From Vicinamibacterales bacterium (GTDB lineage Bacteria; Acidobacteriota; Vicinamibacteria; Vicinamibacterales; JAMQPK01): DNA of 64,000 nt. The stretch covers positions 67,816-131,815 of the forward strand of contig CAWAPZ010000017.1 in assembly GCA_963784045.1 (NCBI GenBank). Reading direction: 5' to 3'. Shown here piece by piece: positions 1 to 17,584 of this stretch. The notes under the pieces were generated by a model. It ran no database searches. It was not told the DNA's origin and saw only the letters and a program-made list of their open reading frames with translations. The stretch's first letter is position 1. The number at the start of each line of letters is the position of its first letter. A program made the position numbers and the translations under genes.

Positions 1-602
1 AGCATCCCCTGCCGGTCGGTGTACTGCACCTGACTCTTGATGCTCAACTCCGGGGTCGCGATGTACTCGAAGCCGCCGAGGCCGATGTATCGCCTGGAAT
101 CGGTGGTGAACACAACGGCGTTGGAATGGAAAACCGGCGCGATGACACCCGGCGCGGCCTGCACTTGCAACTGCAGCGCATCCTGAATGGTCAGCACACC
201 CTGCGGGCCCTCGAGATCCTCCGTGAAGAGCGTCTGCGTTGTCTGGCTCATCAGCATCGGAATCTGATCCCACAGCGCGTAGCCCCTGAACTTACCGGGT
301 CTCACGAACAGGCCATCGAAACGCTGATCGCGGCGACCGATGTTGTCGGCGCCCAGATCCATGACCCAGCCTTTCGTCTCGCGGTTCAGCTGGAGCTTGC
401 CAAAGTACGGACCGCTCCGAAGATCGCGATAGCGTTCGTAGCGCGCCCCATCGCCGTCGACGGTTGTCCCAAGGAACCCGAAATCGATCAACCCGGCATT
501 CGGGCCCAGGCCGACCGTCTCGCTGGTGGCCGTGCCTTGCGCGCTTGCGAGAACCGGAACGAGAGCAAGGGCAGCGACTGAAAGACTGTGTGAGATCCAC
601 AT
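1..602 (-). CDS. MtrB/PioB-family outer-membrane beta-barrel (porin partner of a decahaem cytochrome). N-terminal part only; the gene runs off the window edge.
   Basis: Own translation of the minus strand from ATG 602..600. It is absent from the ORF track because there is no stop inside the window. Sequence: MWISHSLSVAALALVPVLASAQG (signal peptide), then ...GFLGTTVDGDGARYERYRDLRSGPYFGKLQLNRETKGW..., open to base 1. AAGGGA lies in the 16-nt spacer after the decahaem gene stop. Confidence 0.7.
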   Translation of the reverse strand, partial: MWISHSLSVAALALVPVLASAQGTATSETVGLGPNAGLIDFGFLGTTVDGDGARYERYRDLRSGPYFGKLQLNRETKGWVMDLGADNIGRRDQRFDGLFVRPGKFRGYALWDQIPMLMSQTTQTLFTEDLEGPQGVLTIQDALQLQVQAAPGVIAPVFHSNAVVFTTDSRRYIGLGGFEYIATPELSIKSQVQYTDRQGM

Positions 603-618
603 ACCGGGCTGATCCCTT

Positions 619-1647
619 TCACCGAACGAACCGTTGACCACTGGGATGGTTCGACCCATGGATCGCAGAGTGACAGGTGACGCACGACCTGGCCATGATC
701 CGGATGCTCGGGTTCGCCGCGGATCCGATGAGCGCCGCGTCGTAGATGGTGCTCGGATGGCGCGTCGCAACATGGCACCGCTGACAGAGGATCGGCGGCT
801 TGGCGACGAGCATGCGATCGTTCGCCGAGCCGTGCGGGTCGTGGCAGGTCACGCAGCCATCCCGGCTGGGCGCGTGCTCCCAGAGGAACGGGCCGCGCTT
901 CTCGGGATGGCACGAGGTGCACGACTCGGCGATGGAATCACCCGTTCTCAGCAGACGCACATTGGTTGCGCCGTGCACGTTGTGACAGGTGGTGCACTGG
1001 AGCTTGCCCTCGCGCACCGGCATGTGGCCTGAGCGATCCAGCTTGGCTATCTTTTCGCGGTGGCACGTCGTGCACACCGCCGCCTGCGTTTTCTCCTTCA
1101 GCTGCTTTGTCTCCGATTTGTAGTCGTGCACGCTATGGCATGTCGTACACGACAGCTTTCGCGTGTCGTGCTGGCTGCCGTCCCACAATGCGTGCTCGCC
1201 GCGGTCGTGGCAGGTGGCGCAGGTCGCACTGACTTCCGCAGGCGGGAGTTTGCTGATGCTCTTGACAGGAAACGTGCCCGGATCGTCGACATGCTTGCTC
1301 CCGGGACCATGGCAGCTTTCGCAGCCCTGCTTGGCAACGGGCGAACGCGGATCGGCCACTCGATGGTGTGGGCTGCCTTCGTAGCCTTTGATTTGTTCGG
1401 AGTGGCACTCAAGACACTTCGCCTCGCCTACGTAGCTTTGCCCTTCGGCGCCGGCGCCGGGCACGGCCTTGGAGACCGTTGCGGGTTTCTGGCTCTGGGG
1501 CGGCGACGCCGGTTGCGGCGCGGCGCTGCCGAGAGCCGTTGCGACAGCCATGACCCACAGAGCCAACCCCATCACCAGCCACGTTCCTGGGGTCAATTTC
1601 CGGATACGTGCGGTCATGCGCGCATCGACTGGCAACCGCTGTACCAC
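619..1647 (-). CDS. Periplasmic decahaem c-type cytochrome, DmsE/MtrA/PioA/MtoA family
   Basis: Ten CXXCH motifs (CLECH, CESCH, CATCH, CTTCH x3, CTSCH, CVTCH x2, CQRCH) in about 300 aa after a hydrophobic leader. It lies immediately upstream of the MtrB/PioB-like gene. Start is GTG 1647 or ATG 1617. Confidence 0.85.
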   Translation of the reverse strand: MVQRLPVDARMTARIRKLTPGTWLVMGLALWVMAVATALGSAAPQPASPPQSQKPATVSKAVPGAGAEGQSYVGEAKCLECHSEQIKGYEGSPHHRVADPRSPVAKQGCESCHGPGSKHVDDPGTFPVKSISKLPPAEVSATCATCHDRGEHALWDGSQHDTRKLSCTTCHSVHDYKSETKQLKEKTQAAVCTTCHREKIAKLDRSGHMPVREGKLQCTTCHNVHGATNVRLLRTGDSIAESCTSCHPEKRGPFLWEHAPSRDGCVTCHDPHGSANDRMLVAKPPILCQRCHVATRHPSTIYDAALIGSAANPSIRIMARSCVTCHSAIHGSNHPSGQRFVR

Positions 1648-1827
1648 ATCGAATGGTCAGCCGAAGGCCGGAATCATCAGACCTTCAGCGTCATAATCAA
1701 GCTGGCGGAGAAGCAACGCAAACATTTCCGCAGCACCTGAGTGAAAACCGCGTGCAGCAGTCACCGACGGCAGTCAGGCTTCACAGCATCTTGAGATCGA
1801 ACTCGGGTTGTTGATGTGATGCGTCCG

Positions 1828-2169
1828 TCATTTCTTCATCATCGACATCTTTGTAGCGCAGTGCTCACCCATCGCGGCGCGCTCTTCGAGAAGAACATTG
1901 ATGACGTCGGCCATCGCCGCGACCTTCGCTTCACCGGTCGAGCTCTTGACCTGAGCCATCAGTGCCGCGATGCGCTCCGTGTTGGCTTTCTTCTTCGCCG
2001 CCATCTCATCCATCATACCGGCGCCCATCTTCATACCGCCCACGGCAGCTCCCTGTTGAGCCTGTTGCCCGTGGTCGTGCTGATCGGCCTGCGCGAGGAC
2101 GGGGGCAGGCATCACCCCGAGCATCGCCGCGAGAACCGTCGACACACATGCAAGAGTCAATTTCTTCAT
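1828..2169 (-). CDS. Small secreted Met/His-rich helical protein, function unknown
   Basis: ORF 1828..2262 trimmed to MKKLTLACVSTVLAAMLGVMPAPVLAQA (signal peptide). The mature part contains HDHGQQ and MKMGAGMMDEM tracts. Confidence 0.5.
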   Translation of the reverse strand: MKKLTLACVSTVLAAMLGVMPAPVLAQADQHDHGQQAQQGAAVGGMKMGAGMMDEMAAKKKANTERIAALMAQVKSSTGEAKVAAMADVINVLLEERAAMGEHCATKMSMMKK

Positions 2170-2324: not shown

Positions 2325-3695
<1,371 letters not shown>

Positions 3696-3708: not shown

Positions 3709-4107
3709 TTAGACGGATTTTCCGACGCTGTCGCGCAGAGCCTGACCGACCAACGCCGCAAGGCTCTCGACTTCGAACGGCTTGCTGATCACTTGATAGG
3801 CCCCCAGGGCAGCGGCGCCTTGTGCCAGTTCGGGGCTGTTGTGCGCCGTAATCATGATGACACTGGACGTCGGTGCGAGGCGCCTCACCTGTTCGAGTAG
3901 CCGCAAATCAGCCGAATCCGGCAGACGGTAATCGAGCAGCACGACGTCGAAAGGCTCCGCCGCGCTTTCGATAGCGGCCACCGCCATGCGCCCGTCACCG
4001 GCCTGGGTCACCATATATCCGCGTTCCCCCAGAGTCTCGGACAGCGACCAGCGAATCAATGCCTCGTCGTCGACTACGAGAACCGAGGGTGCGAATTTTT
4101 TCTGCAT
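3709..4107 (-). CDS. Stand-alone receiver-domain response regulator
   Basis: [20 protein letters not shown]...[10 protein letters not shown]...ISKPF, a CheY-like fold with no output domain. It lies 13 nt upstream of the NtrC-like gene. Confidence 0.8.
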
Positions 4108-4219
4108 ACGGGGAATATTCCTCATCTCGGATTTCACGTCGCCCTCGAAAGGCGGCTTTGCGGGCAAATACGTTAACATCGCGGTCTCCGACCACTCGGT
4201 TCTTCAATTCTCGGGCCAT

Positions 4220-5641
4220 ATGGAACCTGTCCTCCAGTCAATTTTCGACTCTGCGGTCGACGGCATCATCGTCATCGACGGCCAAGGGATCGTGAAGGCC
4301 TTTAATCCAGCCGCAGAGCGGCTCTTCGGGTATGCCGCAGAGGAAGTGCTCGGCCAGAACGTCAAGCTCTTGATGCCGAGCCCCGACCGCGAGGAGCACG
4401 ACGGGTACATCAGCACGTATATCCAGACTGGGATCCCGAAGGTCATCGGAACCGGGCGCGAGGTGCGCGGACGCCGCAAGGACGGCAGCACGTTTCCCGT
4501 CCATCTATCGGTAGGACGGATGGACATCGACGGCGAACCGGCGTTTACCGGGATTCTTCACGACTTGAGCCGGCGCGTGGAAATCGAGGACGCCCTTCGA
4601 AAGAGTGAGGAACACCTGCGCTCCATCGTCGAATCAGCCGTTGACGCGATTATCGTCATCGACGATCGTGGCCTTGTACAGGCGTTCAACCCCTCAGCGG
4701 AGCGCTTGTTCGGATACGCCCTCGACGAGGCCCTCGGACGCAACGTCAGCATGCTGATGCCGAGTCCCGACCGCGAACAGCACGACGGCTACCTGCAGCG
4801 CTACCTGAAGACCGGCGAGCAGAAGATCATCGGGATCGGCCGCGAAGTGACCTGCCTCAAGAAAGACGGCTCGCGCTTTCCGGTGCACCTCTCTGTCGGC
4901 GAGATGGTGAGCGAGGGGAAGCGCAGCTTTACGGGCATCCTTCACGATCTCAGCGATCGCGTCGCGCTCGAACAACGACTGGCCGAGCAAAAATCGCTCG
5001 CCAAGCTCGGCGAGATGGCGGCGGTCGTCGCGCATGAAGTGAAGAACCCGATTGCCGGCATTCGCGGTGCGCTTCAGGTCATCACGTCGCGCATGCCCGC
5101 AGACCAGCGCGATCGCGCGATCCTGCTCGACATCATCACGCGTCTCGACGCCCTGAACCGTATCGTGCAGGACATGCTGATGTTCGCGCGGCCGCGCGCG
5201 CTGCGTCAGGAGCCGGTTCCCCTCGGTTCGCTGCTGCGCGAGACGGCGGCGCTCATCGAACGGGATCCCGGGATGCTCAATCTCGAGATCGACGTCAGCG
5301 GCTCGGCCGACATCATCGGCGATCGCGAGATGCTGCAGGTCGTCTTTCAGAACATCCTGATGAACGCGGCGCAGGCGATGCAGGGCGAGGGACGAATCGA
5401 CGTCACGATCGCCGTTGCGAACAGGCGCTGCCGTGTCGCCGTCGCCGATCGCGGCCCGGGCATGCCCGGCGACGTGCGCGAGAAGGCATTCGACGCGTTC
5501 TTCACGACGAAGCACCGCGGAACCGGTCTTGGTCTGCCCATTGCGAAGCGGGTGGTCGACGCCCACGGTGGTGCGATGCACATCGACGTCCCGCCGCAGG
5601 GCGGCACCACTATTTCGGTCGACCTCCCGCTGCGCCAGTAG
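4220..5641 (+). CDS. Soluble histidine kinase with two tandem FixL-type haem-PAS domains
   Basis: Start trimmed to MEPVLQS (ATG 4220). Two paralogous PAS modules carry LMPSPDREEHDGYISTY...IGTGREVRGRRKDGSTFPVHLSVG and LMPSPDREQHDGYLQRYLKTGEQKIIGIGREV...KDGSRFPVHLSVGEM. These closely resemble the rhizobial FixL haem pocket (as I recall it, HEHDGYLQRY...RIIGIDR...KDGSTFPM.L). H-box is AHEVKNPIAG, and the HATPase domain has N, G1 and G2 boxes. Confidence 0.85.
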   Translation: MEPVLQSIFDSAVDGIIVIDGQGIVKAFNPAAERLFGYAAEEVLGQNVKLLMPSPDREEHDGYISTYIQTGIPKVIGTGREVRGRRKDGSTFPVHLSVGRMDIDGEPAFTGILHDLSRRVEIEDALRKSEEHLRSIVESAVDAIIVIDDRGLVQAFNPSAERLFGYALDEALGRNVSMLMPSPDREQHDGYLQRYLKTGEQKIIGIGREVTCLKKDGSRFPVHLSVGEMVSEGKRSFTGILHDLSDRVALEQRLAEQKSLAKLGEMAAVVAHEVKNPIAGIRGALQVITSRMPADQRDRAILLDIITRLDALNRIVQDMLMFARPRALRQEPVPLGSLLRETAALIERDPGMLNLEIDVSGSADIIGDREMLQVVFQNILMNAAQAMQGEGRIDVTIAVANRRCRVAVADRGPGMPGDVREKAFDAFFTTKHRGTGLGLPIAKRVVDAHGGAMHIDVPPQGGTTISVDLPLRQ

Positions 5642-12954: not shown

Positions 12955-14385
12955 CTAGTGTGAATGTGAGTGCTCGCCGTGTTTGCCGGCAACATCGCCG
13001 ACGTCGACAGTGCTCATCAAGCCGGCTTCCGCATGATCGAGGATGTGGCAGTGGAACATCCACGAACCCGGTCGATCGAACTTGACGAGAAACCGTTTGG
13101 TCCCATCCACCGCAACGTGAATCGTGTCCTTCCAGGCGCGCGGACTCACAGGCACGCCCTTCTCATCCACTTCCTGAAAGAAGAACCCGTGCAGGTGAAT
13201 GGGATGTGCCCAGATAGCTTTGTTGGTGATGGTCCACAGCTGCGTCTCGCCGACCTCGGCCCGAAGGGATGACTTCCGCCAGAATGGCCCGCCCTCGAGC
13301 GCAAATCCTGTGAGGCCTTGTTCCTTTATCATCACCAGGTCGAGTTTGATCGGCGTCGCGCCCGCCGCTGACATTGGCGGAATATCGCGCGTCACCTTCG
13401 GCAGTTCCGCCGTGGCTACGGCCGGCAGGTCCGCGGGTTCGAAGACGAGGAGGTCTTCCGCCGATCGGAATTCAGTGCTGCCGAACCCGCGATTGAAAGG
13501 GGTGCTGATTAACGTGAGGCTTTTCCCGTCGAGCTTCGGCGCGACGAGCACATCGGCACGCTCTCCCGGTCCGAGGACGATCGTGAACTTCTTCTGGGAG
13601 TACTCCATAAGCCCGCCGTCCACGCCAATGAGCTCGAACGGCTGGCCATCGCCGAGCACGAGCTCGAAATAGCGGCTCTTCGCGGTATTGACGATGCGCC
13701 ATCGTTGCAATGCGCCGTCCCGAATGGTCAACGTCGGGCGAACCTTGCCGTTGACGAGCACATGGCTGCCCTCCCGGCCGAGCAACGCGCCGAGTATGCC
13801 GCCGCTGTCGGCGGACTGCATCGCGCCGTCGTCGTTGAGTGCGATGTCACTGAGCACCAGTACAAGCTCGTCGGGACTCTTGACAGGGTCGTCCGGATCA
13901 TCCACCAGCAGCGGACCGTAGAGACCATATCCGACCTGCGCGGCCGACATAACGTGCGGGTGATACCAGAACAGTCCAGCGTCGGGCACGATGAAGTCAT
14001 AGGTGAACGACCCGCCTGGCTCGACCGGCGCTTGTGATGCGCCCGGCACGCCGTCCATCTCGATCGGCACCTGCACGCCGTGCCAGTGGACGGTCGACGA
14101 CTCGGGAAGCCGGTTGGTGAAATGCACGATGACGCGGTCGCCACGTCGCGCGTGAATCAGCGGCCCGGGAAGCCCGCCGTTGTATGTCCAGACGTCTGTC
14201 CGCAGACCTGGCGCTATCTCGAGTGGCGCGACGCGCGCCTCGAGCGCGATTTCCACGATTGCCGGATCCGGATTGGTATCGACGGCCTCCGGGAGCTTCA
14301 CGTTTTTGTCCCAGCCGGCGGGCTGGAGCGTCTGCGCGTCAGCAGCGGCAGCAACCAGTACGAGAGCGCTAATCAGCAGTTTCAT
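12955..14385 (-). CDS. Multicopper oxidase (three-domain, CueO/CotA-like)
   Basis: Signal peptide. Copper motifs HWHG, HPH, HPIHLHG and HCHILDHAEAGLM. His-rich C-terminus GKHGEHSHSH. Confidence 0.85.
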   Translation of the reverse strand: MKLLISALVLVAAAADAQTLQPAGWDKNVKLPEAVDTNPDPAIVEIALEARVAPLEIAPGLRTDVWTYNGGLPGPLIHARRGDRVIVHFTNRLPESSTVHWHGVQVPIEMDGVPGASQAPVEPGGSFTYDFIVPDAGLFWYHPHVMSAAQVGYGLYGPLLVDDPDDPVKSPDELVLVLSDIALNDDGAMQSADSGGILGALLGREGSHVLVNGKVRPTLTIRDGALQRWRIVNTAKSRYFELVLGDGQPFELIGVDGGLMEYSQKKFTIVLGPGERADVLVAPKLDGKSLTLISTPFNRGFGSTEFRSAEDLLVFEPADLPAVATAELPKVTRDIPPMSAAGATPIKLDLVMIKEQGLTGFALEGGPFWRKSSLRAEVGETQLWTITNKAIWAHPIHLHGFFFQEVDEKGVPVSPRAWKDTIHVAVDGTKRFLVKFDRPGSWMFHCHILDHAEAGLMSTVDVGDVAGKHGEHSHSH

Positions 14386-16287: not shown

Positions 16288-16351
16288 ACGTATTCAGGGT
16301 CAGCTCACTCTAATCAGAAGAAGGAATCGAGGAAATTTGAAGGAGAGTGAG

Positions 16352-17584
16352 ATGAAACGTATCAGCATACGAACGATCGGTGGACTTCTCGTCGTGTTCG
16401 TACTCTTTCTGACATACGCCCTATCTCAATTCCCTCCACGAGCGACAGCGCAGCCCATGGACGGCAAGGCGATTTTCCGCTTCGACACGTTCGGTGACGA
16501 ACAACTCTGGACGGATTTCCTTCGCATGCACGAGGCCATCGACGATGTCGATCCGAAGACGGCACTTTCCGTAGGGCTCAAGGTCGACGTCGAGGCGCTG
16601 CCTTCGGAACTCATCGCCGCGTTAAGAGCGAAAGACGTGGATTTGTCGAGTCCGGCGGTGACGATCGAGCTGCTTCGGCTCAACGCCATTGTCGGCGTCA
16701 AAGGGAACGTCAACAGCGCCGGTCGGCTCACCAGCATTGGAATCACCTGCGCGTTATGCCATTCGTCGGTCGATGATTCTTTGATGCCTGGAATCGGCAA
16801 GCGCCTCGACGGATGGGCGAATACCGATTTGAACGTCGGCGCTATCGTCGCGCTGTCTCCGGCGCCGGAGATTGACGACGCGCTCAAGGCCGAGTTGAAT
16901 ACCTGGGGCCCCGGTAAATACGATCCGCGACACCATGCGTTCGATGGCACCGACCTCCGAATATTGCATAAGGGATCAAAATCACTTCCCGTCGTGATTC
17001 CGCCCATCTATGGGCTGAAACACGTCGGTTTCGAAACATATACGGGCGACGGACCGATCTCGTACTGGAACAGTTACGTCGGGGTATCGCAAATGGGCGG
17101 GCAAGGCAACTTCAACGACGACCGTATCGACCTGTTCATCGAGCAATCGCCGGACCTGGTCACACCGAAGCTGGGAGCCTTGTTCGACTATCAAGTGGGA
17201 TTGCACACTCCCAAACCTCCCGAAGGCAGCTTCAATCGGCAGGCTGCGAACCGCGGCCGGCAACTGTTCCAAAAACAGGCTCGATGCGCCTCCTGCCACT
17301 CGGATGCGACGACGTACACCGATGTCTTGAGCAGTCCCCACGCCACCGTGCCGGTTCTCCACGAGCCGACCGAGATCGGAACTGAACCGGTGTATGCCAC
17401 CCGGAGCGCCACAGGAAAATATCGGGCGACTCCGCTTCGCGCCCTCTGGCAGCATGCACCCTACTTCCACGACGGGAGCGCCGCCGATCTGTCGGCCGTT
17501 GTCGAGCACTACAACACGCAGTTCAAGCTGAACTTGACCCCTGCGCAGAAAGCCGACCTTGTCGAGTTCTTGAAGACGCTGTAG
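16352..17584 (+). CDS. Secreted dihaem c-type cytochrome-like protein, function unknown
   Basis: AAGGAG Shine-Dalgarno before ATG 16352. Signal/anchor helix. Two CXXCH motifs (CALCH, CASCH). C-terminal block PLRALWQHAPYFHDGSAADL resembles dihaem peroxidase-like families. Confidence 0.65.
   Translation: MKRISIRTIGGLLVVFVLFLTYALSQFPPRATAQPMDGKAIFRFDTFGDEQLWTDFLRMHEAIDDVDPKTALSVGLKVDVEALPSELIAALRAKDVDLSSPAVTIELLRLNAIVGVKGNVNSAGRLTSIGITCALCHSSVDDSLMPGIGKRLDGWANTDLNVGAIVALSPAPEIDDALKAELNTWGPGKYDPRHHAFDGTDLRILHKGSKSLPVVIPPIYGLKHVGFETYTGDGPISYWNSYVGVSQMGGQGNFNDDRIDLFIEQSPDLVTPKLGALFDYQVGLHTPKPPEGSFNRQAANRGRQLFQKQARCASCHSDATTYTDVLSSPHATVPVLHEPTEIGTEPVYATRSATGKYRATPLRALWQHAPYFHDGSAADLSAVVEHYNTQFKLNLTPAQKADLVEFLKTL

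Follow-up and report, generated by a model that had tools for sequence, protein, structure and literature searches.

Does a soil-type member of the Acidobacteriota encode a complete path for electrons across its outer membrane, and would such a path carry electrons out of the cell or into it? The question arises at the first bases of a 64,000-nucleotide stretch of a Vicinamibacterales genome (assembly GCA_963784045.1, contig CAWAPZ010000017.1; G000:C17:67816-131815), which we refer to as the window. An initial annotation, made from the letters of the window alone, had proposed that an MtrAB/PioAB-type porin-cytochrome pair lies at this edge, and the proposal is borne out. We consider it very probable that an MtrAB-type conduit with an ImcH-type inner-membrane partner is present and real. 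Two genes at the window edge open an operon: they encode an MtrA-like decahaem cytochrome and an MtrB-like 26-strand barrel, and an imcH-like cytochrome gene follows them. With a monohaem cytochrome c, four proteins are involved. Their family membership, their tight linkage (spacers of 16 and 0 nucleotides) and the recurrence of the gene set throughout the order are established, and the conduit is genuine but ordinary of its kind.

The outer-membrane pair and its partners

The source assembly comprises 4.65 Mb in 20 contigs and is 86% complete. Reading the contig past base 1 of the window (C17:52000-71000, stretch L002) recovered an intact barrel gene, the ImcH-type gene and the monohaem cytochrome c gene (Table 1). 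Within the window, the decahaem open reading frame (ORF) spans 619-1647 on the reverse strand (342 amino acids, or 332 from the likely ATG start at 1617). The product starts with a signal peptide and contains CXXCH exactly 10 times. It scores 249.4 bits against the DmsE/MtrA model TIGR03508 (cut-off 192.2) and aligns end to end (residues 14-339) with Shewanella baltica MtrA (6r2q_A) at 37% identity and an E-value of 1.7e-62. It is MtrA-sized and does not have the long N-terminal extension of PioA. The stop codon at 619-621 is followed by the 16-nucleotide spacer AAGGGATCAGCCCGGT, which contains a Shine-Dalgarno-like AAGGGA, and then by the barrel ATG at 602. The gap and the signal peptide of the downstream ORF are thus as first described: the barrel begins with the signal peptide MWISHSLSVAALALVPVLASA/QG and contains the stretch that the initial annotation had quoted, DGDGARYERYRDLRSGPYFG / DGDGARYERYRDL.

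The barrel is cut by the window edge, and its 200 in-window residues score just below the 23-bit cut-off of PF11854 (MtrB_PioB; 22.5 bits, E-value 5e-5). The full protein of 739 amino acids scores 239.3 bits and covers profile positions 3-635 of 635 with residues 49-739, so neither outcome that the initial annotation had named as refuting its proposal, a missed MtrB/PioB profile or a product much too short for a barrel of 26-28 strands, is observed. It scores 194 bits against TIGR03509, under the trusted cut-off of 240, and matches MtrB of PDB 6R2Q by sequence with an E-value of just 1e-12; we therefore regard it as a divergent member of the MtrB/PioB family. An AlphaFold2 model built from 36 homologues (predicted local distance difference test score 69.6, predicted template-modelling score 0.63) has 26 strands, each of at least 9 residues. 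In a Foldseek search with this model the top match is Shewanella MtrB (6r2q_B; E-value 1.9e-26, template-modelling scores 0.70/0.78). TonB receptors with 22 strands come next, at scores of approximately 0.4, and MtrB leads by 18 orders of magnitude. Homologues of the barrel number in the hundreds. Those with organism names among the top 120 come from metagenome-assembled genomes of Acidobacteriota/Vicinamibacterales, and many are already named "MtrB/PioB family" by JGI and NCBI.

By analogy with the characterised families, the decahaem cytochrome would be threaded through the barrel and would conduct electrons across the outer membrane. The pair shares with Shewanella MtrCAB (6R2Q) a ten-haem cytochrome of the same length, a barrel of the same fold and the cytochrome-then-barrel gene order. 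It differs in that the barrel is only approximately 16% identical to MtrB in the structural alignment, that the inner-membrane partner is of the ImcH type rather than CymA, that the assembled genome has no MtrC or OmcA, and that the host is an Acidobacterium. As the decahaem protein meets a DmsE-family model and MtrAB homologues serve DmsAB in Shewanella, the pair might instead supply an extracellular non-metal reductase encoded elsewhere, e.g., for dimethyl sulfoxide or iodate. This we consider exceedingly improbable, for no molybdopterin reductase or secreted catalytic subunit lies beside the cassette in any locus that we inspected (see below), and the nearest molybdoenzyme in the genome, a sulfite-oxidase-like gene, is approximately 8 kb away, past unrelated genes.

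The third gene of the operon starts directly at the barrel stop codon. Its product has three N-terminal hydrophobic segments that look like transmembrane helices (residues 15-45, 45-75 and 101-121), a CX3CH motif (CGQACH) at residue 134, directly after the third segment, and CXXCH motifs at 159, 209, 316, 429 and 449. Pfam gives a weak NapC/NirT N-terminal match. In NCBIfam there is no ImcH-specific match and there are weak matches to NrfH, NapC and TorC. ImcH homologues have been described as having three transmembrane helices, an atypical CX3CH motif adjacent to the membrane and 5-9 CXXCH motifs, with haem positions listed in Table S3 of that study (Zhong and Shi 2018; PMC6295460). Since the architecture here has both the signature and the spacing of that table, we file the protein in the six-haem subclass of the ImcH family. 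It is 46% identical (E-value 1e-132, residues 12-456) to a 455-amino-acid ORF of Acidobacteria bacterium RIFCSPLOWO2_12_FULL_66_21 (L035), whose length and haem positions match those of OFW24447.1 in Table S3. The assignment is based on this homologue and on the table, rather than on an alignment with Geobacter sulfurreducens ImcH (GSU3259).

When 16 diverse relatives (32-45% identical to the query) are aligned, all five CXXCH motifs are present in every one, and the first haem motif is CX3CH in 15 and CXXCH in one. A methionine three residues past the haem-1 histidine and several histidines are invariant. Mapped by spacing from that histidine, E127, K173 and Q179 of GSU3259, which have been proposed with Y188 for its quinol site, would correspond to E129, K175 and Q181, and Y188 to F190. 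The likeness to GSU3259 extends from the three N-terminal helices and the CX3CH haem beside the third of them to the haem spacing and, if this mapping is right, to the haem-1 E/K/Q residues. Differences lie in the number of haem sites (six instead of seven, without the C-terminal haem 7 proposed for partner docking), in the Y188 position and in genetic context, as the gene is coupled here to MtrAB and not to the Pcc/Omc systems of the Geobacter type.

The small cytochrome c, which is convergent with the operon, has a conserved CXXCH...KPxM pattern. The methionine of KPxM is retained in 17 of 18 neighbours (the remaining sequence is truncated), implying that the haem is probably His/Met-ligated. 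We considered the protein as an MtoD homologue and found no support for this, as no PDB chain named MtoD was matched at an E-value of 1 or less; it resembles MtoD in size and position alone. MtoD itself is bis-His ligated, whereas the cytochrome here appears to be His/Met-ligated.

Recurrence of the gene set in the order

Is this gene set peculiar to one genome? We inspected 20 loci with a decahaem-barrel pair (that of the genome itself, three on metagenome or metagenome-assembled contigs and 16 stretches from relatives). The decahaem gene directly precedes the barrel gene in all 20, an ImcH-like gene is present in 11 and a monohaem cytochrome c gene in 14. Two gene orders recur: decahaem-barrel-cytochrome c-imcH and cytochrome c-imcH-decahaem-barrel. 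Of 151 species genomes sampled evenly from the order, 80 have the MtrB barrel, 83 have an ImcH-like gene and 69 have both (odds ratio 25, Fisher p-value 5e-17, not corrected for phylogeny). The two genes are no more than 6 kb apart in 49 of the 151, usually with just the decahaem gene or a small cytochrome gene between them. Among the genomes of the order in which imcH-like, decahaem and mtrB-like genes occur together are three closed ones (G081, G103 and G150). A scan of named genomes with the ImcH-like family alignment gave at least 599 loci. Among the best 80 of these, a barrel gene lies within 8 kb in 10, which belong mostly to Vicinamibacterales and other Acidobacteria, with one in Gemmatimonadaceae and one in Polarisedimenticolia.

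At the scale of the genus the trait is patchy: orthologue-grade copies (at least 62% identity) are found in 5 of 24 same-genus genomes. In another genome of the genus (G016:C11:124919-126857) the MtrB-like frame is broken by several TGA and TAA stops and appears to be a pseudogene, consistent with patchy gain and loss.

Some of the related loci are more elaborate. A JGI metagenome contig (L007:3585-10175) has a tandem duplicate of the decahaem-barrel pair, with barrels 39% and 59% identical to the query. A Ser/Thr kinase gene with WD40/PD40 repeats lies between its ImcH-like gene and the first pair, and feoB-feoA and a radical-SAM/SPASM gene lie directly downstream of the duplicated pairs. In two loci (L005:12231-14997 and L007:16022-18175) genes for a Rieske protein, a cytochrome b and a multihaem cytochrome c, i.e., a bc-type complex, adjoin the cassette, echoing the petBC-linked porin-cytochrome clusters described by a survey of 2026 (PMC13264449).

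Direction of electron flow and control by oxygen

In which direction would electrons pass? We favour, at about an even chance, the outward or reductive direction, in which a hypoxia-induced conduit would deliver electrons from menaquinol to Fe(III), Mn(IV) or humics outside the cell. The chain that we propose, like its reverse, is modelled on the characterised families. With its CX3CH haem 1, the ImcH-like protein would take electrons from menaquinol on the periplasmic side of the membrane, and these would run along its haem chain to periplasmic carriers, possibly including the monohaem cytochrome c. The carriers would pass them into the MtrA-like decahaem protein inside the barrel. Its outermost haem would then reduce high-potential acceptors that are extracellular or accessible at the surface, e.g., Fe(III) in chelated or poorly crystalline form, Mn(IV) and the quinones of humics, with no surface cytochrome of the MtrC type taking part. 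At low oxygen, the FixL-like haem-PAS kinase and the sigma-54 activator encoded beside the conduit would probably turn on its expression, together with that of nrfHA nearby.

Several observations count in favour of export. ImcH has been implicated in quinol oxidation alone, towards acceptors above about -0.1 V, with haems that are redox-active from -350 to -150 mV (PMC6295460 among other sources), and as it is known solely as a quinol oxidase we count its presence here on this side. The genome has a futalosine-pathway menaquinone gene (MqnA/D family), and menA was not found in it. Nor was the RuBisCO large subunit found in the genome, other pathways of CO2 fixation not having been searched. 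The conduit neighbours nrfHA, which serves anaerobic respiration, and an oxygen-sensor kinase with a sigma-54 activator lies beside the cassette both here and in several relatives. Small decahaem proteins beside porins of 25-36 strands, the "Group 2" clusters from karst metagenome-assembled genomes, have been read as electron export by heterotrophs in the survey mentioned above. That survey is descriptive and covers eight porin-cytochrome clusters, of which six have an ImcH- or NapC/NirT-like cytochrome and some include petBC (PMC13264449).

The regulators deserve a closer look. Both PAS domains of the kinase (4220-5641, forward strand) match FixL (8js5, E-value 2e-42; 1dp6, 4e-38; 1d06, 5e-37), which makes the kinase a probable oxygen sensor. 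The partners of this kinase with tandem FixL-type haem-PAS domains are an NtrC-type sigma-54 activator and a single-domain response regulator, instead of FixJ. Relatives of the activator (68-94% identical) are found beside MtrAB cassettes in at least six other loci (L003, L005, L014, L015, L025 and L050), and the single-domain regulator is kept with the kinase in L014, L015 and L030. Just upstream of the decahaem ATG lies the element TGGTACAGCGGTTGCC (1646-1631). L031 and L015 have kept it as TGGTACGGTGGTTGCC, between flanks that diverge. Good matches to it occur upstream of cassettes with an activator nearby and are absent in three loci without one. An exact search for the sigma-54 pattern in the first loci gave nothing, and the conserved element came from a targeted comparison of upstream regions. 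Across the window the pattern is no more frequent than expected (24 occurrences, 25.8 expected), so sigma-54 control is something that we infer.

A small secreted Met/His-rich protein encoded beside the activator had been placed by the initial annotation where PioC- or MtoD-type carriers occur in other systems. It has a signal peptide, 14 methionines and 3 histidines in 113 amino acids, and it has neither a CXXCH motif nor a cysteine cluster, so the description as secreted and without haem or FeS motif stands. Its role as a carrier does not: it lacks any cofactor motif, is missing from most MtrAB loci and tracks the regulator cassette where there is no MtrAB. No Pfam or NCBIfam model matches it. 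Its 110 homologues form a family of approximately 115 amino acids with a conserved QHDH, MKMGxMKM repeats and a C-terminal EHC, and its place is always just downstream of such a regulator cassette. It lies beside MtrAB only in this genome, its closest relative (G018) and metagenome contig L031, and in L030 and L032 it follows the PAS-kinase/response-regulator/sigma-54 cassette with no MtrAB there. The protein belongs with the regulators and not with the conduit. The partners proper of the conduit in the periplasm and the inner membrane, the monohaem cytochrome c and the ImcH-type protein, are encoded just past base 1. In composition the Met-rich protein may be akin to SilE/PcoE, ZraP and other metal-binding Met/His proteins of the periplasm.

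A number of points weigh against an induced outward conduit. One concerns expression. In L031 and L015 a leader of approximately 27 nucleotides with a Shine-Dalgarno sequence (...CTAACCGAGACGGGTTCGGAGAGGTGACTG) lies between the element and the ATG, and it is missing here, where the distance from the -12 GC of the element to the decahaem ATG is approximately 13 nucleotides (window 1618-1646, reverse strand, compared with L031:5460-5560 and L015:8190-8260). Expression of the decahaem gene in this genome is hence not assured: its mRNA may be leaderless, the gene may be poorly expressed, or translation may begin further upstream, at the GTG at 1647. The other points concern direction. The initial annotation had seen no MtrC-like cytochrome, with the region downstream of the porin gene outside its view. 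This absence extends beyond the window: no surface decahaem of the MtrC/OmcA type lies within 16 kb downstream or, by CXXCH count, elsewhere in the assembly in which it was sought, which is 86% complete. Of the 11 ORFs with at least three CXXCH motifs in the genome, the MtrA-like gene alone has ten or more. MtrAB pairs without MtrC are the defining mark of the Mto and Pio systems, which oxidise Fe(II) (PMC10654088, PMC8805035). Moreover, the probable His/Met ligation of the monohaem cytochrome suggests a positive midpoint potential, which would suit uptake towards oxidases better than a low-potential multihaem relay. Rieske/cytochrome b complexes and FeoAB also stand beside the cassette in the relatives described above. 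Finally, direction cannot be read from the phylogeny of MtrA or MtrB: MtoA and PioA form no function-specific clades (Baker et al. 2022), so a tree would not decide the matter.

These points bring in a serious, if rather unlikely, rival, namely uptake of the Mto/Pio kind. The outer haem of the MtrA-like protein would accept electrons from extracellular Fe(II) or another reduced solid, and they would pass through the monohaem cytochrome c downhill to a terminal oxidase or nitrogen-oxide reductase, possibly also uphill by way of the ImcH-like protein, which would then serve as a quinone reductase. A decahaem cytochrome, a barrel, a monohaem cytochrome c and a quinone-active inner-membrane cytochrome, clustered without MtrC, copy the logic of mtoA-mtoB-mtoD-cymA/mtoC in Sideroxydans and Gallionella, and the MtrC-less pair is shared with PioABC of Rhodopseudomonas. 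A His/Met cytochrome is typical of higher-potential carriers, the cassette has bc-type complexes and FeoAB for neighbours in L005 and L007, and nitrate and nitrite reductase genes lie within the same window. On the other side, the inner-membrane protein is of the ImcH type (three transmembrane helices, CX3CH and five CXXCH) and not a tetrahaem CymA or a CbcL-like MtoC. No high-potential iron-sulfur protein of the PioC type, nor any other Fe-S protein, neighbours the decahaem gene, and the small cytochrome has no detectable relation to MtoD. The ImcH homologues of characterised organisms have so far come from reducers alone, and the potentials of the Geobacter haems would make Fe(II)-driven reduction of menaquinone steeply uphill. 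The host also lacks RuBisCO, and roughly half the species of the order, from which the described isolates are known as organoheterotrophs, carry the cassette.

Could the conduit serve the cell without contributing materially to energy conservation? Under low oxygen it might reduce extracellular Fe(III), Mn or Cu species and thereby bring iron into solution for uptake of the Feo type, or dump excess reductant. FeoB/FeoA genes lie directly downstream of the duplicated cassette in L007, a VIT1 iron transporter gene lies near the cassette in L005, and the neighbours in the genome itself include genes for a TonB protein, a ZIP transporter and a multicopper oxidase. Moreover, the cassette is single-copy and the genome has few multihaem cytochromes, unlike those of dedicated metal respirers. 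We nonetheless think such an assimilatory or protective role very unlikely, as a dedicated menaquinol-oxidising partner and oxygen-sensing sigma-54 control alongside nrfHA look respiratory, and Feo linkage is seen in one of approximately 20 inspected loci. Assimilatory and other roles taken together still seem quite unlikely to us. Outward flow remains the reading that we favour. It is also tempting to hypothesize a conduit that is switched by hypoxia and bidirectional, controlled by FixL and sigma-54, with the ImcH-type cytochrome working as a menaquinone reductase during oxidation of Fe(II) or an electrode. We regard this bidirectional variant as unlikely.

Neighbouring genes and significance

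The features discussed are collected in Table 1. Further redox genes lie on both sides of the conduit. Within the window, at 11-16 kb from it and beside genes for an extracytoplasmic function sigma factor and a ZIP transporter, are a three-domain multicopper oxidase (12955-14385, reverse strand) and a 415-amino-acid protein with a RoxA-like cytochrome c domain (16337-17584, forward strand); further metal-redox functions in the region are possible. Beyond the ImcH-like gene, at 6-9 kb (L002:3731-6650; C17:55730-58649), are a sulfite-oxidase-like molybdoenzyme exported by twin-arginine translocation and a dihaem cytochrome c of the SoxA/TsdA type, which suggests periplasmic oxidation of sulfur compounds.

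Table 1. Genes and elements at the conduit locus. Positions are those of the window, unless a contig (C17) coordinate is given.
Feature	Position	Strand	Remarks
MtrB/PioB-family barrel, first 200 codons	3..602	-	Full gene G000:C17:66198-68417, 739 amino acids
DmsE/MtrA-family decahaem c-type cytochrome	619..1617	-	332 amino acids; alternative GTG start 1647
Candidate sigma-54 (-24/-12) promoter element TGGTACAGCGGTTGCC	1631..1646	-	GG-N10-GC spacing; inferred
Small secreted Met-rich helical protein, 113 amino acids	1828..2169	-	No Pfam/NCBIfam match; neighbour of the regulator cassette
NtrC-type sigma-54-dependent response regulator	2325..3695	-	Pfam Response_reg, Sigma54_activat, AAA_lid_14, HTH_8
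Single-domain response regulator	3709..4179	-	PF00072, 83.6 bits
Soluble histidine kinase, two FixL-type haem-PAS domains	4220..5641	+	PDB FixL matches 8js5, 1dp6, 1d06
ImcH-like inner-membrane cytochrome, 456 amino acids	C17:64827-66197		Outside window; start abuts barrel stop
Class-I monohaem cytochrome c, 113 amino acids	C17:64434-64775		Convergent with operon; PF00034/PF13442

Conduits of this kind are already known and automatically annotated. PioAB homologues have been noted in Acidobacteria (PMC10654088), MtrCAB occurs in Acidobacteriia without an inner-membrane partner (PMC8805035), and the architecture is already described in the survey of 2026. Beyond that survey (PMC13264449), new here are the test of ImcH membership, the order-wide linkage counts, the cytochrome c partner and the association with a FixL-like/sigma-54 cassette. 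Zhong and Shi (2018) found no mtrAB or mtoAB gene next to imcH (PMC6295460); the present cassette joins an outer-membrane module of the Shewanella type to an inner-membrane module of the Geobacter type. For the window itself the gain is mainly one of annotation: operon partners, a likely oxygen-dependent regulator and the removal of the Met-rich neighbour from the pathway.

Soils, aquifers and wastewater plants harbour Vicinamibacterales in abundance, and we know of no described role for them in metal redox chemistry. With the barrel in about half of the species of the order, and an ImcH-type gene within 6 kb of it in about a third, the cassette offers them a testable route for extracellular electron exchange. 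If the bidirectional variant were true, this would be the first ImcH to work in the uptake direction, and a FixL-type haem oxygen sensor acting through sigma-54 would be a form of control that no Mtr, Mto or Pio system has been described to have. It would also mean that an abundant soil order takes a part in the redox cycling of iron that has gone unrecognised.

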